A DNA stretch of 11,196 bases from a virus, in UHGV virus genome UHGV-0300947; one strand, 5' to 3'. Positions 1-11,196 of the stretch are shown here, piece by piece. Below the pieces are notes generated by a model. It was given only the letters and a program-made list of their open reading frames with translations, did no database searches and was not told the origin of the DNA. Positions within the stretch are counted from its first letter, which is position 1, and the number at the start of each line of letters is the position of its first letter. Position numbers and translations under genes: made by a program.

Positions 1-163
1 CTACATCACGTTGACGCTTCCGCATATCAGCGATGATGGATGTGGCTTTATCGCGCTGCTCTTTGTAGGCGATTGCATTATCACGGTAATGATTAACAGC
101 CCATGACAGGCAGACGATGATGCAAATAATCAGAGCGGAGATAATCGCGGTGACTCTGCTCAT
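1..163 (-). CDS. Rz: Rz i-spanin, 5' portion only (gene continues beyond the window start)
   Basis: Reverse-complement translation from ATG at 163-161 gives [54 protein letters not shown], matching the recalled lambda Rz N-terminus with its signal-anchor. The start overlaps the R stop as ATGA. Rz1 would lie beyond the window. Confidence 0.85.
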
Positions 164-636
164 ACCTCAATCTCTCTGACCGTTCCGCCAGCCTCTTTGA
201 ATTTTGCAATCAGGTTGTCAGCCTTATGCTCGAACTGACCATAACCAGCGCCCGGCAGTGAAGCCCAGATATTGCTGCAACGGTCGATTGCCTGACGAAT
301 ATCACCGCGGTCAATCATCGGTAAAGCGCCACGCTCTTTAATCTGCTGCAATGCCACAGCGTCCTGACTTTTCGGAGAGAAGTCTTTCAGACCAAGCTGC
401 TTACGGTAGGCATCCCACCAACGGGAAAGAAGCTGGTAGCGTCCGGCGGCTGTTGATTTGAGTTTTGGGTTTAGCGTGACAAGCTTGCGAGGGTGATCGG
501 AGTAATCAGTAAATAGCTCTCCGCCTACAATGACGTCATAACCATGATTTCTGGTTTTCTGCCGTCCGTTATCAGTTCCCTCTGACCACGCCAGCATATC
601 GAGGAACGCCTTACGTTGATTATTGATTTCCACCAT
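160..636 (-). CDS. R: Endolysin R (lambda-type lytic transglycosylase)
   Basis: 158 aa [54 protein letters not shown]..., near-identical to the lambda R protein as recalled. It overlaps the S 3' end by 17 nt, as in lambda. Confidence 0.97.
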
Positions 637-943
637 CTTCTACTCCGGCTTTTTTAGCAGCGAAGCGTTTGATAAGCGAACCAATCGAGTCAGTACCGAT
701 GTAGCCGATGAACACGCTCGTTATATAAGCGAGATTGCTACTTAGTCCGGCGAAGTCGAGAAGGTCACGAATGAACCAGGCGATAATGGCGCACATCGTT
801 GCGTCGATTACTGTTTTTGTAAACGCACCGCCATTATATCTGCCGCGAAGGTACGCCATTGCAAACGCAAGGATTGCCCCGATGCCTTGTTCCTTTGCCG
901 CGAGAATGGCGGCTAACAGGTCATGTTTTTCTGGCATCTTCAT
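620..943 (-). CDS. S: Holin/antiholin S (class I holin, dual-start S107/S105)
   Basis: 107 aa [42 protein letters not shown]... matches lambda S. The Met1-Lys2-Met3 dual-start motif is present (ATG at 943-941 and 937-935). Confidence 0.97.
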
Positions 944-1067
944 GTCTTACCCCCAATAAGGGGATTTGCTCTATTTAATTAGGAATAAGGTCGATTACTG
1001 ATAGAACAAATCCAGGCTACTGTGTTTAGTAATCAGATTTGTTCGTGACCGATATGCACGGGCAAAA

Positions 1068-1097
1068 CGGCATGAGGTTGTTAGCGCAACCTCATGC
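1068..1097 (-). other. Perfect 12-bp stem / 6-nt loop hairpin in the late leader upstream of S
   Basis: ggcatgaggttg-ttagcg-caacctcatgcc is a perfect inverted repeat. On the sense (-) strand it is followed by GTTTTGCCC. Function unknown. Confidence 0.5.
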
Positions 1098-1477
1098 CAC
1101 CCGCTTTCACGAAGGTCATGTGTAGAAGGCCGCAGCATAACTATCACTGATGAATTCAGGATAGCCAGTGGCTACGGCTCAGGTTGGGTTGTGGCGGTCG
1201 GTGCTGAACTCCGACTTAATGACGATAGGCGTGTACCGACGCCTCGTTTTACTTCCTCCGCTTTCACGGCTTCACCCTAGACCAGCTTTACGAAATCCTC
1301 GTAAACCTAACCGCGGCAGATATGACCGGCACGGTGTGCCATATCACGGACCGGCGGGTGTCTCGTTCACCTGATTAACGCATCAGCCTGCGTATTCACC
1401 ACAACGATAAGAGTACTGCGCGGCACCTTTCACCAATTCCGCGAGGTCTGCGGGTTCAATGCTCTTACCTGTTGTGC

Positions 1478-1522
1478 AAACAAAAAAGCCACCGTTGCAA
1501 CTTAAGAGTCACTAACGGCAGC
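1478..1522 (-). terminator. tR'-like intrinsic terminator of the late leader transcript
   Basis: On the - strand GCUGCCGUU...AACGGUGGC can pair as a 9-bp stem (two G-U pairs) and is followed by TTTTTTGTTT. Sequence after the T-run (GCACAACAGGTAAGAGCATTGA) resembles the lambda tR' flank as I recall it. Confidence 0.5.
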
Positions 1523-1526
1523 TTAC

Positions 1527-1562
1527 CTTCTAATTATGGCTAAATGGATAATTGCATGTCAA
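1527..1562 (-). promoter_or_regulatory. Candidate late promoter pR' (Q-dependent late promoter with qut region)
   Basis: On the - strand: TTGACA (plus 1562-1557), 17-bp spacer, CATAAT (plus 1539-1534). The -35 overlaps the last Q codons and the Q stop lies in the spacer. The initial transcribed region runs into the tR'-like terminator about 50 nt downstream. Confidence 0.5.
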
Positions 1563-2058
1563 GGTTTTTAACAGCAACATGCTTAACTTTCTCAACACGT
1601 TTACGCATTTTGAAAGCATTTTGCATTGGCTGGTATAAAACAAATAATGACGCTTTCAGGATGTCGTCAATTTCGTTTCTACAGGTTGCCAGTGAAGGTT
1701 TTCTCCATCCCTCGCCACCACGTCCACACATCTTGCGTGGCTTTGCAGTCGCGTGATAGTAGGATGCAATTGCTCGCTTAGATGAACCATGAGCGTAGTA
1801 GCTGAGGAGGATGCCAAAGGCTTTCTTGTCAATGTACATGACGGAATCAACGACCTGAGAAATCAACATTCCATCATCATCATTACACATTGGCCTTGTC
1901 ATAATTCTTCCCGGCTCTACGCTCTCCATGAACTTCGCTATTACGCTGCTCATGCGCTTTTCCAGACGACCTGAATAAACCCATGCGCCCCACAGTTCAA
2001 GCCAGCCATTCAGCCACTCGTGCTGCTCTTTGGTGAGGTTTAGTTCTCTTATGCTCAT
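1540..2058 (-). CDS. Q: Late-gene antiterminator Q, non-lambda type (phage 21/82 or DLP12 QuuD-like family)
   Basis: 172 aa, positioned between ninH and pR'/S. Contains W-x-x-WGAW and RPMCNDDDGML motifs that I recall from QuuD/phage-82-type Q proteins. It does not resemble lambda Q. Start ATG overlaps the ninH stop (ATGA). Confidence 0.8.
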   Translation of the reverse strand: MSIRELNLTKEQHEWLNGWLELWGAWVYSGRLEKRMSSVIAKFMESVEPGRIMTRPMCNDDDGMLISQVVDSVMYIDKKAFGILLSYYAHGSSKRAIASYYHATAKPRKMCGRGGEGWRKPSLATCRNEIDDILKASLFVLYQPMQNAFKMRKRVEKVKHVAVKNLDMQLSI

Positions 2059-2243
2059 CGTCTTCCCCTCTTGCCTTGTTTGACCATCAGGACGCCGTTA
2101 ACTATTACGTGACGCTCGCCTTTGCTGTCTCGGTTGTACTTGAGCACTGTTCCTCTTGCGCAGGAAAGCATCCTCGCCACTTCGGTCTGATTGCCTCGTG
2201 TCTGGATAAGAAGCTCTGGTATCGTTTGAATTGTGGCGTTCAT
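2055..2243 (-). CDS. ninH: NinH-like small HTH protein
   Basis: 62 aa MNATIQTIPELLIQTRGNQTEVARMLSCARGTVLKYNRDSKGERHVIVNGVLMV... resembles lambda NinH (recalled ...IPDMLVEAYGNQTEVARRLKCSRGTVRKY...AIVNDVLMV). Overlaps rusA stop and Q start by ATGA. Confidence 0.8.
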   Translation of the reverse strand: MNATIQTIPELLIQTRGNQTEVARMLSCARGTVLKYNRDSKGERHVIVNGVLMVKQGKRGRR

Positions 2244-2602
2244 GCGTTCTCCAGTTCGGTGATTTTTATTCCAAGCCGTCCGCCTGGTACTTTCACACCA
2301 CGAATTACGCGAATGTCATCGAATTGCTCGTCGTCTTCCGCAAATCCGGCGTGGATAAGGGAGTCGAGTAAACCTTTCAGGATGTTGTCGAGGTCGCGGC
2401 GGCGGGAGTCTGGAACGTCTGCGATGACTTTGATACGGAGTCGTGATTTGGTGAAAATGTCTAACTTGAGTTGGCGGATGATTTGCTGAACGTCTTTTCG
2501 GTATTTCTGGCCTTTATCGCTTATGTAATATTGGCTTCCCCGTCTTCGCCAGTAGGTATTCACCGACGGCGGGTATGGAAGCACAAACTGATATTCGTTC
2601 AT
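2240..2602 (-). CDS. rusA: RusA-family Holliday junction resolvase
   Basis: 120 aa with RusA hallmarks: LPYPPSVNTYW near the N-terminus, DxxRRRDLDN and GGRL...I...E near the C-terminus, compared with recalled E. coli RusA. Confidence 0.9.
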   Translation of the reverse strand: MNEYQFVLPYPPSVNTYWRRRGSQYYISDKGQKYRKDVQQIIRQLKLDIFTKSRLRIKVIADVPDSRRRDLDNILKGLLDSLIHAGFAEDDEQFDDIRVIRGVKVPGGRLGIKITELENA

Positions 2603-2889
2603 GACTTAATCTTCCCCTCCCTCAGCAGTATCGCCTGCGTTCTGATCACGCCTTCGAGGTGGTAAAGTCTGGCGTCTTTGTTGTCGAGATTATGGGTGCG
2701 TCGGTCGATTTCATCGTGACACGCACTACAAGCCCATGCACCGATCAGGTCGTCAGGCTTCATTCCCGTTCCGCAAATTCCAGCCATCCGGTAATGTGCC
2801 AGAACTGTAGTTTCAGGGTTGCCATTGCATACGCCGTAAATACGTACCTGACATTCTCTTCCGCGCGCTTCTTTGCGTAGGTTAGCCAT
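2599..2889 (-). CDS. ybcO: YbcO-like protein (DUF1364-type, Cys/His-rich putative nuclease)
   Basis: 96 aa MANLRKEARGRECQVRIYGVCNGNPETTVLAHYR...CSACHDEIDRR..., close to the recalled DLP12 YbcO sequence. Conserved Cys/His spacing suggests metal binding. Confidence 0.75.
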   Translation of the reverse strand: MANLRKEARGRECQVRIYGVCNGNPETTVLAHYRMAGICGTGMKPDDLIGAWACSACHDEIDRRTHNLDNKDARLYHLEGVIRTQAILLREGKIKS

Positions 2890-3611
2890 TAAGCAGCCTC
2901 CCCTGTTACTTTCAGCATTCCGTTATCGAGCAGCTTTCTGGTCAGCCACTGTTGACCACGCCCGGTGATTTTTGTGGTGAACGATATCTGTATTCCGTGA
3001 TTTGTGTTGACCGCTGTTTCTTTCACTGTGAAATAGCCGCGATCCATATATTCCTGCATTGGCACATTGCGCCGGGAACCTGAAGCAATAAGGATTTTGT
3101 GATCACGCATCCACGCAAACAGTTTGTTTTGACCAATACCAACAACCTTTGCAAAGTTTCCAATCAAAATTCCGCTGGCCTCGCCAACGCGATCGGCAAA
3201 CTCAACTTTAGGTGCGACAATTGCGAGCTGGTTTTCCAGTTGCATTTTCTGCTCAGCAAGATCGGCAGCAAGGCGCAACGCTTCCGGTAGCGTTTTGGGG
3301 ATATTAACCGCAGCTTCTTCAAGCTCTCGCCAGCGGTCAACAAGGCGAGCGGTGAACTCTGGCGACAACTGGGCAACAACGACAATACTGTCTCGCTTAC
3401 CTTGTTCGCCCTCGAAGACGTAATGCTCGTACTGAACATTGAACCCTAAGTTATTGATTCTTTCGGAAACCTCAATTTGAGGAAGCCGGATAACACCATT
3501 TTTAGCCAGCGTTTCGATGGTACGTTTCACATTGTCATGACGCTTACCAACCAACTCAGCAATTTCAATGCTTGTCATTTTGATGGCATTGCCATTCATT
3601 AACTCATTCAT
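2889..3611 (-). CDS. Phage antirepressor (N-terminal Rha-type domain, C-terminal KilA-C/Ant-type domain)
   Basis: 240 aa. The N-terminal MTSIEIAELVGKRHDNVKRTIETL is typical of phage Rha regulatory domains and the C-terminal half resembles Ant/KilAC domains. Start ATG overlaps the ninF stop (ATGAATGA); its stop overlaps the ybcO start (TAATG). Confidence 0.8.
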   Translation of the reverse strand: MNELMNGNAIKMTSIEIAELVGKRHDNVKRTIETLAKNGVIRLPQIEVSERINNLGFNVQYEHYVFEGEQGKRDSIVVVAQLSPEFTARLVDRWRELEEAAVNIPKTLPEALRLAADLAEQKMQLENQLAIVAPKVEFADRVGEASGILIGNFAKVVGIGQNKLFAWMRDHKILIASGSRRNVPMQEYMDRGYFTVKETAVNTNHGIQISFTTKITGRGQQWLTRKLLDNGMLKVTGEAA

Positions 3612-3780
3612 CGTCTTCTTCCTCGTACATTGAGCTATTCGGATCGCTCATCAGTTCTGCGCAGCAGTGCTCACACATGTGAACTTCCAGCACATGCAGC
3701 TTCTGACCGCAGTTAGCGCACGTTAAAGCTCGCTCGACGCTTTCTTTCTGGCATTGAAGGGATTGGGATGGGCTAAGCAT
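3604..3780 (-). CDS. ninF: NinF (58 aa, below the ORF-track length cut-off)
   Basis: Manual translation of the - strand gives [58 protein letters not shown], matching recalled lambda NinF. Start overlaps the stop of the upstream gene. Confidence 0.8.
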   Translation of the reverse strand: MLSPSQSLQCQKESVERALTCANCGQKLHVLEVHMCEHCCAELMSDPNSSMYEEEDDE

Positions 3781-4126
3781 TATTGGCGTCCTGCATCATG
3801 AGAAAGACAATCATGGCGGCGCGGAGTTGGTTTTCATCTTGAGTCATATGATATGGGGTGCTATCACTGCCAACTTTTCTATGCGCTGCCTTCCATAATC
3901 CATTTTCTGGCGCTGGAATAATGCCAATTCTGTTCTCTACGATAATCGGCTCTGCGTCTTCAGGATTATTGCAGTAGTCGTACCATCGATAATTACCATT
4001 TGATTCATTGCCGACAGACCGTCCATCTGCGTTGTGCGGATAACCTAATGGTATTGCCCCCACTATCGCTTTAAATACTCGCTTGTTAATTTCAAAATCA
4101 CTTAACTGTGAATAATCCATTGTCAT
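3773..4126 (-). CDS. nin-region hypothetical protein (possibly NinX/DUF2591-like)
   Basis: 117 aa from the internal start [21 protein letters not shown]... I place the start at ATG 4126-4124 because it overlaps the ninE stop (ATGA); the longer track ORF begins further upstream. The family name is a weak recollection. Confidence 0.6.
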
Positions 4127-4299
4127 TTCCTCGCGCGATGTCTTAGCCACCGGATATCCCACAGGTGAGCCGTGTAGTTGAAGGTTTTTACGTCAGATTC
4201 TTTTGGGATTGGCTTGCGTTTATTTCTGGAGCGTTTCGTTGGAAGGTATTTGCAGTTTTCGCAGATGATGTCGGTGATACTTCGTCGCTGTCGTCTCAT
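4123..4299 (-). CDS. ninE: NinE
   Basis: [58 protein letters not shown] matches recalled lambda NinE. The true start is the internal Met of the 78-aa track ORF, overlapping the ninB stop (ATGA). Confidence 0.85.
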
Positions 4300-4736
4300 G
4301 CCGCCCTGTCTCCCCATCGCGCTTTCCATTCGAGAGCCAGTCGCGCTTCGTCTGACCACTTAACGCCACGCTCTGTACCGAATGCCTGTATAAGCTCTAA
4401 TAGCTCCGCAAATTCGTTTACACGCATCCTGCTGGTTGACTGGCCTATTACCACAAAGCCATTCCCGGCAAGGTTAGGAACAACATCCTGCTGCTTTAAT
4501 GCTGCGGTAAACACACACTTCCAGCTTTCTGCATCCAGCCAGCGACCATGCCATTCAACCTGACGAGAGACGTCACCAAGGCAAGCCCAAAGCTTTCGAT
4601 TCTGGTCTAAGCTGCGGTTGCGTTCCTGAATGGTTACTACGATTGGTTTGGTTGGGTCTGGAAGGATTTGCTGTACTGCGTGAATAGCGTTTTGCTGATG
4701 TGCCGGAGATCGAATTTCAAAGGTTAGTTTTTTCAT
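4296..4736 (-). CDS. ninB: NinB (Orf-family recombination mediator)
   Basis: 146 aa from [56 protein letters not shown]..., near-identical to recalled lambda NinB. The track ORF is extended to an upstream alternative start. Confidence 0.9.
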
Positions 4737-4752
4737 GACTTCCCTCTCCCCC

Positions 4753-4784
4753 AAATAAAAAGGCCTGCGATTACCTGCAGGCCT
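4753..4784 (-). terminator. tR2-like intrinsic terminator upstream of ninB
   Basis: On the - strand AGGCCTGC-AGGTAATC-GCAGGCCT forms a perfect 8-bp stem and is followed by TTTTTATTT. Same position and sequence character as lambda tR2 between ren and ninB. Confidence 0.75.
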
Positions 4785-4809
4785 GTTATTAGCTCAGTGA
4801 TGTAGATGG

Positions 4810-5100
4810 TCATCTTTTAACTCCATATACCGCCAATATCCGTTTCATCGTGGCACTCTGGCGACACTCCTTAAAAATCAGGTTCGTGCTCATCTTTCCT
4901 TCCCGTTCTTCCTTGGTAGCAAACCGGTAATACACCGTTCGCCAGACCTTACCTTCGATAACCAGAAGACCTGCCCGTGCCATTTTAGCCGCGGCCTGAT
5001 TTATGCTGGTTACTGTTGCGCCTGTTAGCGCGGCAACGTCCGGCGCACAGAAGCTATTATGCGTCCCCAGGTAATGAATAATTGCCTCTTTGCCCGTCAT
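4810..5100 (-). CDS. ren: Ren (Rex-exclusion resistance protein)
   Basis: 96 aa MTGKEAIIHYLGTHNSFCAPDVAALTGATVTSINQAAAKMARAGLLVIEGKVWRTVYYRF... matches recalled lambda Ren. Confidence 0.9.
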   Translation of the reverse strand: MTGKEAIIHYLGTHNSFCAPDVAALTGATVTSINQAAAKMARAGLLVIEGKVWRTVYYRFATKEEREGKMSTNLIFKECRQSATMKRILAVYGVKR

Positions 5101-5798
5101 ACACTTGCTCCTTTCAGTCCTAACTTAGCTTTAATTTCTGCGATCTTCGCCAGCGCCTGAACACGATTTAGAGGTCTGCCGCCCATGACAGGAAGTTGTT
5201 TTACTGGTTCAGGTATCGTCTCACCACGGTTAATTCGCGCTGTCATACAGGTCAGTTCATCGGCAGCCTTGCGTCGTAATTCCGCGTCAGTCAGCGCATT
5301 GGCCCGCATGTTCTGGTACAGGTTGGTAACCAGCCAGTAGTGCGCGTTCGATTTCCACGGATAAGACTCTGCATCCGGATACAGGCCTCGCTTCCGGCAA
5401 TACTCGTAAACCATATCAACCAGCTCGCTGACGTTTGGCAGTCCGGCGATAACGGATGCTTCTTCCCGGCACCATGCAACAAACTGCCCGGGTGATGGCA
5501 GAAATGGTCGATTCTGCCGACGGGCTACGCGCATTCCTGCGTTAACCTGTTCCATTGTGGTGATCCCGTTTTCCCGGAAAGCCAGAACCCACTGGCGGCG
5601 GATTTCGTTCAGTTCGTTCTGGTCACGGTTAGCCAGACTCGCCGGGAAAGTTGCCAGTAACTGGCTGAACACACCGTTGATGATCTGCGCTACCTGCTGT
5701 ACCTGCGGCTTTTCGTCGTACTGTTCCGGCATGTTGTTGGCGATCCGACGCATCTGCTCACGGTCAAAATTAACCATCTGTGCGGCGATGTTTTTCAT
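5097..5798 (-). CDS. P: Replication protein P (DnaB helicase loader)
   Basis: 233 aa MKNIAAQMVNFDREQMRRIANNMPEQYDEKPQVQQVAQIINGVFSQLLATF..., near-identical to recalled lambda P. Start overlaps the O stop. Confidence 0.95.
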   Translation of the reverse strand: MKNIAAQMVNFDREQMRRIANNMPEQYDEKPQVQQVAQIINGVFSQLLATFPASLANRDQNELNEIRRQWVLAFRENGITTMEQVNAGMRVARRQNRPFLPSPGQFVAWCREEASVIAGLPNVSELVDMVYEYCRKRGLYPDAESYPWKSNAHYWLVTNLYQNMRANALTDAELRRKAADELTCMTARINRGETIPEPVKQLPVMGGRPLNRVQALAKIAEIKAKLGLKGASV

Positions 5799-6694
5799 AA
5801 ATCCACCCCGTAAATCCAGTCAGTGTTTGTCAGGTCGAGTTTTGGTTTGCAGGCTGTCACACCTGCCTGTTGCTTGTTACGGTTGATTTCGAGCTGGGTC
5901 CACTTGTCGCGGAGTTTGGCCGGGCTCAGCACGTTACCGGACCAGAAGTTGTCCTGGCATGCCCAGCGGAACAGTACACACATGTCGCGATGGTTACGTC
6001 CGTCACGTTCACGCATCAGGCGGATATCGTTAGCCCACCCTGCAAAATTCGGTTTTCTGGCTGATGGCGCGATGGTCTTCACCATGTCAAACATCCATTC
6101 TGCGGCGGTCAGGTCTTCTGCTGTCCCCCACTTGCTGCCGCTCTGAATTGCAGCATCCGGTTTCACCACAGAAAGGTCGTTTTCTGGCTGGTCAGAGGAT
6201 TCGCCAGAATTCTCTGACGAATAATCTTTTCTTTTTTCTTTTGTAATAGTGTCTTTTGTGTCCCCCTGTTTTGAGGGATAGCAATCCCCCAATTTGAGGG
6301 ATGTTTTATCCCTCGTTTTAGGGGATTTTCCCTCGTTTTGAGGGATACACCATTCTGAGATGTTTTTATTTGGTCCAAACATGCCGCCTTGCTGCTTGAT
6401 AATATTCATTCTGACGAGTTCTAACTTGGCTTCATTGCACCGTTTGACGGGTAACTTTGTAATCTCGCTAAGTTGAGAATCGGTGATTCTGTCCATTGGT
6501 TTATTCCATCCATAGGTTTTACGCAGAATGGCAAGCAGCACTTTAAACTGTCGCTTGGTCAGATCTGCGCCTGAATAAGCCTCAAGCAGCATATTTGATA
6601 GTCTGGCGTAACCATCATCGAGATCTGCCACATTACGCTCCTGTTTGGCAAAGTTACCTCTGCAGAAGTTGAGTATTTTTGCTGTATTTGTCAT
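5795..6694 (-). CDS. O: Replication initiator O
   Basis: 299 aa MTNTAKILNFCRGNFAKQERNVADLDDGYARLSNMLLEAYSGADLTKRQFKVLLAILRKTYGWNK..., near-identical to recalled lambda O. The origin iterons lie inside the gene. AGGAG Shine-Dalgarno upstream of the start. Confidence 0.95.
   Translation of the reverse strand: MTNTAKILNFCRGNFAKQERNVADLDDGYARLSNMLLEAYSGADLTKRQFKVLLAILRKTYGWNKPMDRITDSQLSEITKLPVKRCNEAKLELVRMNIIKQQGGMFGPNKNISEWCIPQNEGKSPKTRDKTSLKLGDCYPSKQGDTKDTITKEKRKDYSSENSGESSDQPENDLSVVKPDAAIQSGSKWGTAEDLTAAEWMFDMVKTIAPSARKPNFAGWANDIRLMRERDGRNHRDMCVLFRWACQDNFWSGNVLSPAKLRDKWTQLEINRNKQQAGVTACKPKLDLTNTDWIYGVDL
6221..6346. other. ori-lambda-type replication origin inside O: four approx. 19-bp iterons plus adjacent AT-rich region
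   Basis: Iterons (plus strand): GTCCCCCTGTTTTGAGGGAT (6260-6279), ATCCCCCAATTTGAGGGAT (6284-6302), ATCCCTCGTTTTAGGGGAT (6308-6326), TTCCCTCGTTTTGAGGGAT (6328-6346), each with internal dyad symmetry. AT-rich tract ataatcttttcttttttcttttgtaatagtgtcttttgtg at 6221-6258. Confidence 0.85.
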
Positions 6695-6703
6695 AATGAC
6701 TCC

Positions 6704-6782
6704 TGTGGATTGATCCAGTAATGACCTCAGAATTCCATCTGGATTTGTTCAGAACGCTCGGTTGCCGCCGGGCGTTTTTTAT
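6704..6782 (+). ncRNA. oop: oop-like antisense RNA with its terminator, overlapping the 3' end of cII
   Basis: Candidate promoter TTGAGT (6669-6674), 17-bp spacer, CATAAT (6692-6697). GC-rich dyad aacgctcggttgccgccgggcg (6753-6774) followed by TTTTTTATT. Length (about 77 nt) and sequence match the lambda oop RNA as recalled. Confidence 0.6.
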
Positions 6783-7023
6783 TGGTGAGTCCATCAAGCG
6801 CATACTTAAAAGCCCTGCTAATCGGACTGATGTCTGATGCCATTCCGAAAGCACACAAGACCGAAGCAATAAATCTCCAGTCCGTTCTGCTTATCTTCGA
6901 TTCATGACAGCCAATCATCTTTGCCAGACCGCGCTGGGTAATAGCTGACAGATTGATAAGTAAATCTGTTTCTGCGCGATCAACGTCACGCTGTGATAGT
7001 TTGCTGTAACTTGTTCTTTCCAT
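6727..7023 (-). CDS. cII: CII-like transcriptional activator (mosaic: non-lambda N-terminal DNA-binding part, lambda-type C-terminus)
   Basis: 98 aa. The C-terminal TNKKRPAATERSEQIQMEF equals the recalled lambda CII C-terminus. The N-terminal 80 aa (MERTSYSKLSQRDVDRAETDLLINLSAITQRGLAKMIGCHESKISR...) is HTH-like but divergent from lambda CII. Confidence 0.8.
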   Translation of the reverse strand: MERTSYSKLSQRDVDRAETDLLINLSAITQRGLAKMIGCHESKISRTDWRFIASVLCAFGMASDISPISRAFKYALDGLTNKKRPAATERSEQIQMEF

Positions 7024-7108
7024 TTCTTAAGATTTCCAATAGTGAATAGTTAGTTGAAAGGTATGCGTGGAAACGCATATGGCCTTAGTTGGTCAGATAT
7101 CTTGGAAC

Positions 7109-7154
7109 TCGCTTTTCAGCGACGTAGGACGAATGTCCGTTGTTACAAAGAGCG
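7109..7154 (-). promoter_or_regulatory. nutR-like site (boxA plus boxB hairpin) downstream of cro
   Basis: On the - strand: boxA-like CGCTCTTTG (plus 7154-7146), then about 23 nt, then boxB-like hairpin UCGCU-GAAA-AGCGA (plus 7122-7109). Closely parallels the nutL-like site at 9791-9835, including a shared CTACGT before boxB. Confidence 0.55.
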
Positions 7155-7164
7155 GATCCGCTTA

Positions 7165-7380
7165 TTAAGCGGCTTTGTGTTCCGGCGGGAACACGTCATC
7201 AAGACTGACTTTTGCGCCTAACTTGTTTAGGCACGCAACAAGAGCACGGCATGTTTTAAGGTCTGGGAAGCGACGACCAGATTCCCAATGTCCGATAGCT
7301 CCCTGTGTGCATCCAACTGCCTTAGCAAGTGTTGTTTGAGAGATATTCAGTGACTCTCGATATTTTCGTAGGTTGCTCAT
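7165..7380 (-). CDS. cro: Cro-like HTH repressor (non-lambda specificity)
   Basis: 71 aa from the internal ATG (7380-7378) preceded by GGAGG: MSNLRKYRESLNISQTTLAKAVGCTQGAIGHWESGRRFPDLKTCRALVACLNKLGAKVSLDDVF... The HTH motif QTTLAKAVGCTQGAIGHW is shared with the CI N-terminus. Divergent from cI. The 128-aa track ORF is an artificial upstream extension. Confidence 0.8.
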   Translation of the reverse strand: MSNLRKYRESLNISQTTLAKAVGCTQGAIGHWESGRRFPDLKTCRALVACLNKLGAKVSLDDVFPPEHKAA

Positions 7381-7497
7381 ATGCCCTCCATAGTAAACAC
7401 GAATAAAAAAATACAATATGTACTTTGCGAATACAAGTAAAAATACACATTGTGCATGGATGGTTCCAGTACAGAGCGTAATAATAAGGACATGAAA
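7381..7497. promoter_or_regulatory. Divergent OR-type operator/promoter region (PR towards cro, PRM towards cI)
   Basis: AT-rich intergenic region between divergent cro and cI with repeated ATACAA/ATACAC motifs and short dyads (tacaatatgta, tactttgcgaatacaagta). Candidate PR on the - strand: TTGTAT (plus 7436-7431), 17 bp, TATTTT (plus 7413-7408). Exact operators not resolved. Confidence 0.55.
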
Positions 7498-8151
7498 ATG
7501 AAATGGTATGAACTGGCTAGATCCAGAATGAAAGAGCTCGGCATAACTCAAGAGAAGTTAGCCGAAGAGCTAGGTATGACGCAGGGTGGGATTGGACACT
7601 GGTTGCGCGGATCTCGTCATCCATCTCTTAGTGATATTGGTGTGGTGTTTAAATACCTTGGTATTGATAACATATCATTCAACCACGACGGGACATTTTC
7701 ACCTGTTGGCGAATACTCATCGGCCCCAGTTAAAAAACAATATGAGTACCCTGTTTTTTCTCATGTTCAGGCTGGGATGTTCTCTCCAGAACTCAGAACC
7801 TTTACCAAAGGCGATGCGGAGAGATTGGTAAGCACAACCAAAAAAGCCAGTGACTCTGCATTCTGGCTTGAGGTTGAAGGTAACTCAATGACCGCACCAA
7901 CAGGTTCCAAACCCAGCTTTCCTGACGGGATGTTAATTCTGGTTGACCCTGAGCAAGCTGTTGAGCCCGGCGATTTCTGCATAGCCAGACTTGGTGGTGA
8001 TGAATTTACCTTCAAGAAACTGATCAGGGATAGCGGTCAGGTGTTTCTACAGCCACTAAACCCACAATACCCAATGATCCCATGCAATGAGAGTTGTTCC
8101 GTTGTGGGGAAAGTTATCGCCAGCCAATGGCCTGAAGAGACGTTTGGGTGA
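7498..8151 (+). CDS. cI: CI-type prophage repressor (N-terminal HTH of non-lambda specificity fused to lambda-type S24 autopeptidase C-terminal domain)
   Basis: The C-terminal about 130 aa ([28 protein letters not shown]...GNSM...FTFKKLIRD...[16 protein letters not shown]) matches recalled lambda CI, including the Ala-Gly cleavage site and catalytic Ser/Lys. The N-terminal HTH ([20 protein letters not shown]) differs from lambda. Start chosen at ATG 7498 (AAGGA 7 nt upstream); ATG 7492 or 7456 are alternatives. Confidence 0.9.
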
Positions 8152-8190
8152 TGAAACCACTTTTATCTACAATTTACAGGGCGGTAAACA

Positions 8191-8748
8191 TTGGCAAAAA
8201 TAGATGATTATCAGCCAAGCCAAGTAGAAGTTGATAAAGTACTTTATTGTAAAAAAATAGTTAACTTTTCTGGCGTTAAATGGAAACAGAAACCAAGTCG
8301 CTCTGATATGTGGCTACAAGCCCATATCATCCCCTTGGATGAGGATTGTATACCTATACAAGGGCTAAAGTTTGAACTGAAATGGAAACCAGATCAGGAT
8401 TCAGAACCTGATGACCCGATTTCTTACCCTAAAATAAATATTATTGCTTTCTATCATAACAAGAGGGTTTTCGCGGTAGATACCTATCACTTTGACAAAC
8501 ACACGAATAGTTACAAGGTCGATCATCCGAAGTACCAAGATATCATTTACGGTGCTCACTACCATGTATACTATGAAGAAGCTGGATACTATAGTGATAG
8601 AATAGCGTTTCCAATCGAAGATGACATAAACCCAGATGACCTGGTAGGGTATTGGAATTACTTCTGTAAACATCTGAACATAACTTACTCTGGGAGAATA
8701 CCTTTACCGCTTGAAGATGAGTCGGGGCAAATGGGGTTTGGAATATGA
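8191..8748 (+). CDS. Hypothetical protein A of the rex-position cassette (no recognisable family; acidic, Tyr/His-rich, no predicted TM segment)
   Basis: 185-aa ORF beginning 40 bp after the cI stop. The first in-frame start after the upstream stop is TTG (8191); the first ATG is at codon 40 (8308). Its stop overlaps the start of the next ORF (ATGA). Sequence is visibly AT-richer than flanking lambda-type genes. Confidence 0.6.
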   Translation: MAKIDDYQPSQVEVDKVLYCKKIVNFSGVKWKQKPSRSDMWLQAHIIPLDEDCIPIQGLKFELKWKPDQDSEPDDPISYPKINIIAFYHNKRVFAVDTYHFDKHTNSYKVDHPKYQDIIYGAHYHVYYEEAGYYSDRIAFPIEDDINPDDLVGYWNYFCKHLNITYSGRIPLPLEDESGQMGFGI

Positions 8749-9497
8749 TGTGCTCAACAGTGATCTCACAACTAGGTTTCGAATGCCATCCAATAGGCAA
8801 GACCTTGAGAATTATCAGTCCATTCACTTACTGTGATGATGGAGAGCATGTCGGTGCCTTTATCCGTGAAGTCAATGGTAGGTATTTAGTTAGTGACAGA
8901 TGCGATGCCTTAATGAATATGGAGGCAAGAGGGATCTCGCTTACCAAAAAACGACTTGATGAGATACGACAATTACTGCTTAAAGAAGGCGCAGAACTCA
9001 ATGCTCGAGGAGAAATCATTGCTTGGGCAACAGAAAAGGATGTCGGTGCGATTACATCGAACATAATTAGAGCTGGTATACTCGCATCAACTTTGTCGTT
9101 AGACTGGTATCAGCCAGTTCAAGCTGAAAAGTTTGAAAGTATGGTTATTGATTATCTATATCACACAGAGCTTAGAGACGCACTTTCTCTTCGTGAAAAC
9201 GTATATGGCTTGAGTGGACATCAAATTACCGTCCCTGTAACAATAAAAACCGACATACCTAAATACGTTTTTACATCAAGCGTGAAACACGGAGGAAGCT
9301 GGAATAGTGCTTACTCATTGCTTGGGAAACTAATTGATCTTAAAGCTTCAAGTGAGGAGTATAACAACAGATTTGTTGTTATAGACAGCGAAGCAATTGG
9401 TGATCAAATGCAACAACTCTCCTTACTCTTCCATGAATCAAGCCAAGTTCTACCATTCTCCAAAAGAGAGACTTGGGTTAAGAGACTTGCAGCATAA
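8745..9497 (+). CDS. Hypothetical protein B of the rex-position cassette (no recognisable family; soluble)
   Basis: 250-aa ORF with ATG start overlapping the upstream stop, followed 5 bp downstream by an intrinsic terminator. No motif I can assign; it does not resemble RexA or RexB. Confidence 0.65.
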   Translation: MMCSTVISQLGFECHPIGKTLRIISPFTYCDDGEHVGAFIREVNGRYLVSDRCDALMNMEARGISLTKKRLDEIRQLLLKEGAELNARGEIIAWATEKDVGAITSNIIRAGILASTLSLDWYQPVQAEKFESMVIDYLYHTELRDALSLRENVYGLSGHQITVPVTIKTDIPKYVFTSSVKHGGSWNSAYSLLGKLIDLKASSEEYNNRFVVIDSEAIGDQMQQLSLLFHESSQVLPFSKRETWVKRLAA

Positions 9498-9502
9498 TAC
9501 AA

Positions 9503-9529
9503 CCCGGCCTCAGCGCCGGGTTTTCTTTG
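9503..9529 (+). terminator. Intrinsic terminator closing the cI-cassette operon (tImm-like)
   Basis: CCCGGC-ctcagc-GCCGGG is a perfect 6-bp GC stem, immediately followed by TTTTCTTTG. Confidence 0.7.
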
Positions 9530-9699
9530 CCTCACGTTCGCCCACCTAAAAACACATAACCAATTATATTTATTGAAAAATAAATAGATGCAACCCACTA
9601 AACCACGCAATTCTGATCTCTCCTTACATCGCCGAGGCAATACATCCACGCTAAAAAACAACACTATTAAATACAAAGCGTTATAAAAAACCACGCCAA

Positions 9700-9751
9700 C
9701 TTACAACAAATTGTATTGATCTTGTAAAGTACATATCGTACTATTTAACCG
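9700..9751 (+). promoter_or_regulatory. Candidate PL promoter with OL-type operators
   Basis: TTGATC (9716-9721), 17-bp spacer, TACTAT (9739-9744). Overlapping dyads TACAACAAATTGTA (9702-9715) and AGTACATATCGTACT (9729-9743) share TACA/TGTA half-sites with the OR region. Confidence 0.5.
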
Positions 9752-9790
9752 TCAGCAGGACGCTGGAAGCCAAATGGAACAGACTGGCAG

Positions 9791-9835
9791 GCTCTTTAAA
9801 CAACGTCGACTCTCGACTACGTGGCTGAAAAGCCA
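9791..9835 (+). promoter_or_regulatory. nutL-like site (boxA plus boxB hairpin)
   Basis: boxA-like GCTCTTTAA (9791-9799) and boxB-like hairpin UGGCU-GAAA-AGCCA (9822-9835), about 100 nt upstream of N. Confidence 0.6.
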
Positions 9836-9933
9836 GATCACCCAACCACATAAGCTGTGGGATGCAATGCCGAAGCAACCGTCTCAGGAGGAGCTTCGAG
9901 ATTGCATCGCCAAAGTTTATTCGGGAGGAATCC

Positions 9934-10206
9934 ATGTCCAGAAAAACAGAATTTAAAGGCACCGCAGCTTCTCGCCGTAGAGCTCGTCGCGCAAATCTGC
10001 AAAGTCAGGAGGCGATCAGCTCCGACAAGCTACACAGGCCAACCCCTTCACGAGTGGTCTTGCAATGCAAGCTCAAACCAGCAATGAGAGCAGAAGTGAT
10101 AACTCTGACAACGTTGACCAGAAAATATGAAGGTTCAACTTGTCTTCCGAACGTAGCTCTTTACGCGGCAGGCTACCGGAAATCAAAACAACTGACGGCG
10201 AGATGA
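9934..10206 (+). CDS. N: N-type antitermination protein (arginine-rich motif; C-terminus resembling P22 gp24-type N)
   Basis: 90 aa from ATG 9934 (GGGAGG 5 nt upstream): MSRKTEFKGTAASRRRARRANLQ... with an N-terminal arginine-rich motif. The C-terminus ...LPNVALYAAGYRKSKQLTAR resembles the recalled P22 N C-terminus. The longer track ORFs are upstream extensions. Confidence 0.8.
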   Translation: MSRKTEFKGTAASRRRARRANLQSQEAISSDKLHRPTPSRVVLQCKLKPAMRAEVITLTTLTRKYEGSTCLPNVALYAAGYRKSKQLTAR

Positions 10207-10222
10207 TAAATTCATTTGCTAA

Positions 10223-10804
10223 TTACTTGTTTTTGCCATGCTTATCCTGAGCGATAAGTTCATCCATAAGGCTGTCTGCCTTCCCGGCAAACCTAATGTA
10301 GCACTCATGTCTATAGCTTTCAGGGATAACGAAACGGTCGGTATCAGGATATCCAACAGCAGGAGGCCTTCGAACGAGGAGTCCTTTTTTGAGCAATGAA
10401 ATTGATTCATGAGCGCCCTTTTCCGTTTGTAGCTGGTTATTAGCGGCTACAGCGAATGCCAAATACGCTCTTTCTCCAAGAGTTAACGAATCAAACAAAT
10501 CTTGCACATATTTTTCTTCTTTAGATTTGCGCTTCTGAGCAGCGAATACCTCAATTCTTTCAGTCACAGCGTGATAAGCGGAATTAACAACGCCGTTAAG
10601 CACATAGCTAACGCAAAACAACAGGATGTAATACATCCAGTAATGAGGAAGGATTTCTGGATTATGCAGGTTTATCCATTCTTTTACGCTTACCGGCATA
10701 ACAATAATCAATATGATCAGGATGATTAGCATATGAATCAACTGTTTAAGTGTCATTCCTTGCAGGAAAAAATGCATTAGTTCCTGCCACCATGAGTTGT
10801 TCAT
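10223..10804 (-). CDS. sieB: SieB superinfection exclusion protein (membrane protein)
   Basis: 193 aa MNNSWWQELMHFFLQGMTLKQLIHMLIILIILIIVMPVSVKEWINLHNPEILPHYWMYYILLFCVSYVL... with two hydrophobic helices; matches the lambda/P22 SieB family as recalled. Convergent with N. Confidence 0.85.
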   Translation of the reverse strand: MNNSWWQELMHFFLQGMTLKQLIHMLIILIILIIVMPVSVKEWINLHNPEILPHYWMYYILLFCVSYVLNGVVNSAYHAVTERIEVFAAQKRKSKEEKYVQDLFDSLTLGERAYLAFAVAANNQLQTEKGAHESISLLKKGLLVRRPPAVGYPDTDRFVIPESYRHECYIRFAGKADSLMDELIAQDKHGKNK

Positions 10805-10947
10805 CGGCGTTTCTCTTTTGCTCTCTGTAGGGGTGAATAGAGTTTATCCGATTTCTCGTTGTAGGGGTACACGAGAACCACCGAGCCTGATGTGGTTAAA
10901 AGACAGGCACAATCTTTACTACCGCAATCCACTATTTAAGGTGATAT

Positions 10948-11034
10948 ATGGAAGAAGAATTTGAAGAGTTCGAAGAGCATCCTCAAGATGTGATGGAACA
11001 ATACCAGGACTATCCGTATGACTACGACTATTGA
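10948..11034 (+). CDS. Small acidic ORF (28 aa), resembling the orf28 annotated upstream of ral in lambda
   Basis: ATG 10948 preceded by AAGGTGA; encodes MEEEFEEFEEHPQDVMEQYQDYPYDYDY*. Its 3' end overlaps the ral start. Coding status uncertain. Confidence 0.45.
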   Translation: MEEEFEEFEEHPQDVMEQYQDYPYDYDY

Positions 11035-11196
11035 TACAAATCAATGGTGTGGACAATTCAAACGATGCAATGGATGCAAGCTGCAATCGGAATGCATGGT
11101 TAAGCCTGAAGAAATGTTTCCTGTAATGGAAGATGGGAAATATGTCGATAAATGGGCAATACGAACGACGGCAATGATTGCCAGAGAACTTGGTAA
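11018..11196 (+). CDS. ral: Ral restriction-alleviation protein (3' end beyond the window)
   Basis: Translation from ATG 11018: MTTTIDTNQWCGQFKRCNGCKLQSECMVKPEEMFPVMEDGKYVDKWAIRTTAMIARELG..., matching recalled lambda Ral. Confidence 0.85.
   Translation, partial: MTTTIDTNQWCGQFKRCNGCKLQSECMVKPEEMFPVMEDGKYVDKWAIRTTAMIARELG

Follow-up and report, generated by a model that had tools for sequence, protein, structure and literature searches.

The three genes located between ninF and ninH of the phage DNA studied here, roi, ybcO and rusA, are very probably single-gene modules that can be exchanged independently of each other. They would be expressed as translationally coupled members of a delayed-early operon and encode a putative DNA-binding regulator (Roi), a nuclease-like protein (YbcO) and a predicted resolvase (RusA). 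The analysed DNA, hereafter called the window, has a length of 11,196 nucleotides and comprises the early-right and nin regions of a lambdoid phage or prophage as well as Q and the lysis region. The rightward operon is encoded by the minus strand. Read in 5'-3' direction of this strand, the gene order is cro, cII, O, P, ren, ninB, ninE, NinX, ninF, the ORFs for proteins of 240, 96 and 120 amino acids, ninH, Q, S and R. Judged by its sequence, the segment can be equated with the already described roi-hkbD(ybcO)-rus part of the nin regions of HK022/HK97/HK620/CUS-3-type phages.

Gene organization and expression of the segment

The upstream flank of the segment is formed by ninF (positions 3604-3780; like all features described here on the minus strand), which matched the Pfam family NinF (E 1e-10) and whose product is 85% identical to lambda NinF. 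It is followed by roi (2889-3611) for a 240-aa Roi-type regulator, by ybcO, also named hkbD (2599-2889), for a 96-aa protein of the DUF1364 family and by rusA (2240-2602) for a 120-aa member of the RusA family of Holliday-junction resolvases. Downstream, a diverged allele of ninH (2055-2243) was detected by the Phage_NinH profile (E 2e-24). The ninH stop codon is overlapped by Q (1540-2058), an antiterminator gene of the PF06530 type according to Pfam and to the annotation of phage CUS-3. All Pfam matches of the three ORFs and their flanks exceeded the curated cut-offs, and the PHROGs assignments were concordant. In lambda, the annotated order is NinF-NinG-NinH. The earlier note had placed three ORFs with the domain labels Rha/KilAC, YbcO-like and RusA at the position of lambda ninG (rap), and this was confirmed in both respects, by the exact ORF limits and the Pfam matches of the flanks on the one hand and by the Pfam profiles of the three proteins on the other. 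A domain search of the 240-aa protein, which the note had suggested, returned Phage_pRha and ANT/KilAC.

From ninF to Q, each gene overlaps with its neighbour, first by ATGAATGA, then by TAATG and at the remaining three junctions by ATGA. Since there is no junction without an overlap, it can be concluded that the genes are real and translationally coupled, and that they are not chance ORFs.

Upstream of the block, the terminator scan revealed a strong intrinsic terminator between ren and ninB (4761-4784), which we take to be the positional counterpart of lambda tR2. A pR'-like promoter was detected at the Q end. Due to the location of the tR2-like terminator between ren and ninB, the nin genes can be placed, by analogy, in an N-dependent delayed-early transcript, and roi, ybcO and rusA would be transcribed from pR through this terminator with the help of N. 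The number of promoter-like sites across positions 900-5200 did not exceed the chance level (5 sites, with 5.3 expected). Inside the block there is a single such site, which is weak (9/12) and lies on the opposite strand. From position 100 to position 5175 of the window, no LexA box with at most one mismatch was found. The whole window was also empty in searches for Rfam families and tRNAs, and no PADLOC model matched Roi, YbcO or NinX, so that a known defence role of these proteins was not supported.

Relationship to known phages and mosaic structure

Positions 2000-3800 of the window are 100% identical to the DNA of phage CUS-3 (CP000711), and over positions 1-4748 the identity still amounts to 99.98%. 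In CUS-3, the three genes are annotated as roi ('DNA-binding protein'), hkbD and rus. Within the coordinates of the block there is no difference at all between the two sequences, which share the order ninF-roi-hkbD-rus-ninH-Q and the overlapping junctions. By contrast, the remainder of the window is unlike CUS-3 and contains lambda-type O/P/ren genes and another immunity region. The same gene order, at 92-98% DNA identity, was found in Kapi1, HK75, N7, HK620, HK140, HK633, mEpX1/2, HK629, HK542, HK022 and HK97. The whole block (at least 80% of its length) was detected in 561 out of 5426 complete E. coli genomes, the three genes occur together in 29 phage records, and the orf96(ybcO)-rus pair has already been sequenced in phage 82 (X92588). 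The finding is thus already known: roi, ybcO and rusA are three ordinary accessory genes of lambda-like phages. As a discovery it carries little weight; the segment is a textbook case of the mosaicism of lambdoid phages, and each of the genes has been named in several published phage genomes. The activity of YbcO beside RusA and the target of Roi/KilAC in lytic growth concern the families as a whole and not this window in particular. Knowledge of either would annotate hundreds of prophages including those of Stx phages, but would leave current concepts unchanged.

To define the breakpoints of the segment, the window was compared with reference loci by blastn. DNA homology to lambda ends at position 3609, where ninF stops and roi starts, and resumes only at position 1193, upstream of S. 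Thus, the alleles of ninH and Q also differ from those of lambda; ninH has no match at the DNA level, and its product is 54% identical to lambda NinH. With the window, an Stx2 prophage of O157 has only roi in common (3633-2882, 86%), which is followed there directly by ninG and then by a phosphatase gene and Q. Another prophage (L005) shares ninF and, after a 70-aa ORF in place of roi, the genes ybcO, rusA and ninH (2890-2054). In a third one (L006), similarity begins with rusA (from 2602 onward), which is preceded by a NUMOD4-HNH gene and a 91-aa ORF with weak similarity to DUF968/YbcO. Finally, in phage 82 orf96(ybcO) and rus directly follow ninE, and NinX, ninF and roi, which are all present in the window, are missing.

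The earlier note had regarded the three genes as one inserted block replacing ninG. A stricter version of this idea holds that they form a single co-adapted cassette which moves as a unit and has jointly replaced ninG. It is true that the genes are contiguous and overlapping, and that they are found together in the E. coli genomes and phage records mentioned above. On the other hand, homology breaks at each gene boundary, and the combinations of roi with ninG, of ybcO and rusA without roi and of rusA with another upstream ORF all occur. On the basis of these mosaic junctions, the cassette is highly improbable and was rejected. Neither was the inserted block borne out, given that the Stx2 prophage possesses roi followed by ninG and that phage 82 and other prophages carry ybcO-rusA in the absence of roi. 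Since the breakpoints coincide with gene boundaries and both roi/ninG and ybcO-rusA without roi were encountered, the block consists of separate modules and did not arise by one insertion. As far as can be deduced from the compared sequences, it is ybcO-rusA alone that alternates with ninG, and roi has a variable slot of its own after ninF, where it combines with either type of resolvase gene. The alternation of rap and rusA as such has already been published (PMC4118853).

RusA and YbcO

The 120-aa protein was assigned to the Pfam family RusA (PF05866) with an E value of 1e-16 and a score of 62 bits, compared to a cut-off of 22.8. Its residues 1-119 can be aligned without gaps to the E. coli RusA structure 1Q8R (E 3e-26). 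In the E. coli protein, Asp70, Asp72, Lys76 and Asp91 are reported to have catalytic roles. All four residues (D70, D72, K76 and D91) are retained in the RusA protein of the window according to the 1Q8R alignment, and the crystallized D70N mutant (2H8C) differs from it at exactly residue 70. The protein is 45% identical to Rus of phage 82, whose record (X92588) established Rus as a junction-specific endonuclease, and for which resolution of Holliday junctions and suppression of ruv mutants have been shown. Based on this homology and on the conserved catalytic residues, RusA most likely resolves Holliday junctions and other branched concatemer intermediates of replication and recombination before packaging. 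It would thereby be a functional analogue of Rap (NinG) of lambda, to which RusA proteins are a known alternative.

The orf96(ybcO)-rus pair of the E. coli prophage DLP12 and of phage 82 (Mahdi et al. 1996; PDB 3G27, 1Q8R) resembles the genes of the window closely. The order of the two genes, their 4-nt overlap and their position upstream of Q are as in the window, and both the catalytic residues of RusA and the Cys/His residues of YbcO are conserved. The degree of conservation differs, however, since the YbcO proteins are approximately 70% but the RusA proteins only approximately 45% identical to those of the window.

The 96-aa protein revealed a strong similarity to the Pfam family YbcO (E 3e-44, 149 bits, cut-off 29.9) and matched the crystal structure 3G27 over residues 1-95 (E 5e-40). 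The family is unusually well conserved, with identities of at least 70% across Enterobacterales, Pasteurellaceae and bacteria of the Pseudomonas group. Among 28 sequences from three orders, the residues C13, C21, C54, C57, H32, H58, D59 and E60 as well as several basic residues are invariant. YbcO/DUF1364 has been described as a treble-clef zinc finger with a His-Me (HNH-like) fold (group 7) and a conserved histidine at the catalytic position, and as a predicted recombination nuclease (PMC4999995, PMC5714182). Following this classification, the four cysteines C13, C21, C54 and C57 would be zinc ligands and H32 the conserved histidine of the beta-hairpin. The structure model calculated with AF2 from the 28-sequence alignment was too poor for a fold search (mean pLDDT 56). 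According to the earlier note, YbcO has no established function. This statement stands insofar as a biochemical demonstration of nuclease activity was not found in the literature for any member of the family, but it overlooks that a crystal structure (3G27) and a published prediction as a His-Me finger nuclease already exist.

Six ybcO loci outside of E. coli, belonging to four genera, were inspected. In five of them (Gallibacterium, Proteus, two of Serratia and Metapseudomonas otitidis), rusA comes next after ybcO and overlaps it by 4 nt, and phage 82 likewise contains ybcO-rusA. The exception is a prophage of Metapseudomonas furukawaii, in which ybcO is not accompanied by rusA, but by a tiny Cys-rich ORF and a gene of the tyrosine-recombinase family. 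A survey of His-Me finger proteins also listed RusA, Q and antirepressor proteins as neighbours of YbcO (PMC5714182). Hence, YbcO, probably a zinc-stabilized, nuclease-like protein of the His-Me finger type whose gene is almost always located immediately upstream of rusA, most likely belongs to the same DNA-branch-processing pathway as RusA. It perhaps supplies the nicking of D-loops or flaps, which Rap can perform and RusA cannot. A further-reaching and rather doubtful suggestion is that YbcO is an obligate partner nuclease of RusA and that the tightly coupled pair mimics the broader substrate range of lambda Rap (D-loops and Holliday junctions). If true, such a partnership would explain why ybcO and rusA have stayed together in at least three bacterial orders.

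Lambda NinG (Rap), a structure-specific endonuclease, is likewise encoded between ninF and ninH and presumably has the same task, the cutting of branched recombination intermediates, but its fold is unrelated to that of RusA. Searches for a relationship of the three proteins to lambda NinG/Rap (PF05766) yielded no hit to the Pfam family NinG and a BLASTP E value of 4.3, and none of them can be counted as a member of this family. Rap and YbcO are both placed in the His-Me finger superfamily (PMC5714182). In the direct comparison of YbcO with lambda NinG, BLASTP did not detect a relationship and hhalign returned a probability of 0.4%, so that YbcO was not confirmed as a sequence relative of Rap.

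Roi as a putative DNA-binding regulator

The 240-aa protein contains a Phage_pRha domain (amino acids 12-99, E 6e-9) and an ANT/KilAC domain (amino acids 126-228, E 8e-33). It is 87% identical to Roi of phage HK022 across 240/241 amino acids and is thus a full-length orthologue of this protein. HK022 Roi has the same domain architecture and the same slot in the nin region, after ninF and before the resolvase gene. It is said to be a helix-turn-helix DNA-binding protein tied to IHF, which reportedly binds within its own gene adjoining an IHF site, where IHF stabilizes the binding. HK022 Roi reportedly also blocks lytic growth in IHF mutants.

The approximately 30 substitutions that separate the two proteins are not evenly distributed, as nearly all of them affect amino acids 22-67. 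A comparison of 113 close homologues revealed a similar picture, with variability concentrated in amino acids 21-60 and in the linker (101-110) and an almost invariant KilAC half. From an alignment of 70 sequences, AF2 yielded a confident model of Roi (pLDDT 91), which comprises an N-terminal domain (amino acids 11-100) with the succession strand-helix-helix-hairpin-helix, a long helix (108-144) and a domain composed of a helix and a hairpin (148-229). In this model, the variable residues map to the helix 25-37 and to the hairpin 45-67, which forms the modelled 'wing', and would fit an allele-specific recognition of DNA. Due to the position of the substitutions on the helix and the wing, the DNA-site specificity of Roi encoded by the window may differ from that of HK022 Roi.

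In the earlier note, the 240-aa protein was thought to be an antirepressor, which might cause cross-induction of other prophages. This proposal, derived from the name of a domain, was not supported. Roi shares the ANT/KilAC domain with the proven antirepressor Ant1 of P1, and PHROG and RefSeq carry the label 'anti-repressor', but the domain is not specific for antirepression. Several other activities of KilAC have been documented, and 'antirepressor' should be understood as a domain label only. Prophages can be coordinated by antirepressors acting in trans (Lemire 2011, PMC3121763). However, those of the Gifsy type are LexA-controlled modules located elsewhere in the genome (PMC3121763). By contrast, roi has no LexA box, and its surroundings contain promoter-like sites only at chance level. 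Since no promoter of its own stood out from the chance level and the gene is located behind the tR2-like terminator, Roi would be made only after the repressor of the phage itself is gone. Expression independent of the phage's own repressor, from a separate promoter, an immI-type region or a LexA-controlled unit, would be expected of functional antirepressors such as P22 Ant, P1 Ant1 and those of the Gifsy GfoA type, but was not found for roi. Moreover, HK022 Roi, to which the protein is so closely related, has been published as a DNA-binding protein (Clerget & Boccard 1996, J Bacteriol 178:4077). A true antirepressor binding and inactivating CI-type repressors, either that of its own phage, which would lock in lysis, or those of co-resident prophages, which would cause cross-induction, is therefore quite unlikely.

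Alternatively, the main target of Roi could be the host, with KilAC either damping RecA/SOS or arresting cell division, as P1 KilA and CreP do, and with the N-terminal domain serving only for targeting or autoregulation. The harm that HK022 Roi is said to do to lytic growth in IHF mutants can be counted in favour of this explanation. Further arguments come from other KilAC proteins. In the Listeria protein AriS, it is the KilAC domain that inhibits the SOS response, and a pRha+KilAC architecture occurs among AriS-like proteins (PMC9043618). A stand-alone KilAC protein is a bacteriostatic toxin which arrests cell division (bioRxiv 2024.01.05.574328). However, Roi is related to AriS and CreP only as a member of the same domain family, and AriS belongs to phages of a distant host group and is encoded at a different genomic position. 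The near-invariant C-terminal domain fits a conserved interaction partner, but does not identify it. An action primarily on the host is thus improbable. As a separate possibility, the invariant KilAC domain might affect RecA/SOS, or the repressors that co-resident prophages encode, in trans.

The most plausible role of Roi is that of a site-specific DNA-binding regulator. The orthology to HK022 Roi supports this assignment, and the mechanism can be envisaged as follows. The Rha-type winged helix at the N-terminus would carry the allele-specific residues, Roi would probably bind inside its own gene adjoining a conserved putative IHF site, and KilAC might be an effector or oligomerization domain. 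Roi would then modulate lytic development, through an effect on a host factor or on the transcription that leads to Q, and would not act as a classical antirepressor.

The IHF consensus is matched twice in the whole window. One of these matches, AATCAATAACTTA, lies inside roi (3447-3459), corresponding to nucleotides 152-164 of the gene, and is a candidate site as defined by the consensus. A perfect consensus is present at the same place in the three roi alleles of the window, HK022 and the Stx2 prophage. Its conservation could equally reflect the encoded peptide Ile-Asn-x-Leu-Gly rather than a DNA site. A repeat search in roi detected nothing but short matches in two copies, to which no clear meaning can be attached. 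Within the IHF motif, differences between the three alleles are confined to the unspecified N positions (N2-N4), although no other part of the gene varies as much as the sequence on either side of the motif.

Mosaic composition of the window

The window as a whole is a mosaic. At least 80% coverage of it was reached by no record in either the phage collection or the complete E. coli collection. Phage CUS-3, whose DNA is identical to the roi-ybcO-rusA block, is 99.98% identical to positions 1-4748, and lambda shows 95.7% identity over positions 4296-5380, comprising the end of P, ren and ninB. Phage ev207 and the prophages of strains ATCC 25922 and CFT073 are approximately 99.5% identical over about 65% of the window, a match composed of three aligned pieces spanning positions 47-11196. 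Contrary to the window, lambda possesses ninC, ninD and ninI. A gene for a P22-type NinX protein of 129 aa (3773-4162, minus strand; Pfam E 1e-17) is located between ninE and ninF. The Q gene of the window is of the PF06530 type and revealed no match to lambda Q at the DNA level.

Neighbours of YbcO and RusA in other prophages

In a Metapseudomonas furukawaii prophage (L007, 3001-4387), a YbcO protein 72% identical to that of the window is encoded. After its gene, the place of RusA is taken by a Cys-rich ORF of 41 aa and a gene for a 325-aa protein of the tyrosine recombinase family; a gene for a pRha+ANT protein lies upstream of the replication genes. This arrangement without RusA may provide YbcO with an alternative junction-processing partner. 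In the E. coli W4 prophage (L006, 1727-2504), the roi/ybcO slot holds a gene for a homing-type endonuclease (NUMOD4-HNH) together with an ORF of 91 aa. Since this ORF has a sub-threshold similarity to DUF968/YbcO, a small His-Me group-7 protein may regularly be encoded before RusA, even where its sequence has diverged.

LexA-box-like sites and genes surrounding cI and N

Allowing one mismatch, the LexA-box pattern CTGTN8ACAG was found at 11 sites on the plus strand of the window, compared to a mean of 3.9 in shuffled sequences, and is commoner in the window than in these; two of 200 shuffles reached this number. None of the 11 sites is a perfect match and none is situated near the roi-ybcO-rusA block.

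Immediately 3′ of cI, two overlapping low-GC genes on the plus strand occupy the slot held in lambda by rexA/rexB. The first (8191-8748, 185 aa) gave weak matches to DUF6978 and PADLOC PDC-M24A (E 5e-4), the second (8745-9497, 250 aa) contains DUF1828 and matches PADLOC PDC-M24B over its full length (E 5e-10). The pair looks like a candidate two-gene defence system that would be expressed by the prophage. N (9862-10206, plus strand) adjoins a SieB-family superinfection-exclusion gene (10223-10804, minus strand; Pfam E 2.5e-22), within which the second IHF-consensus match of the window is located (10736-10748).
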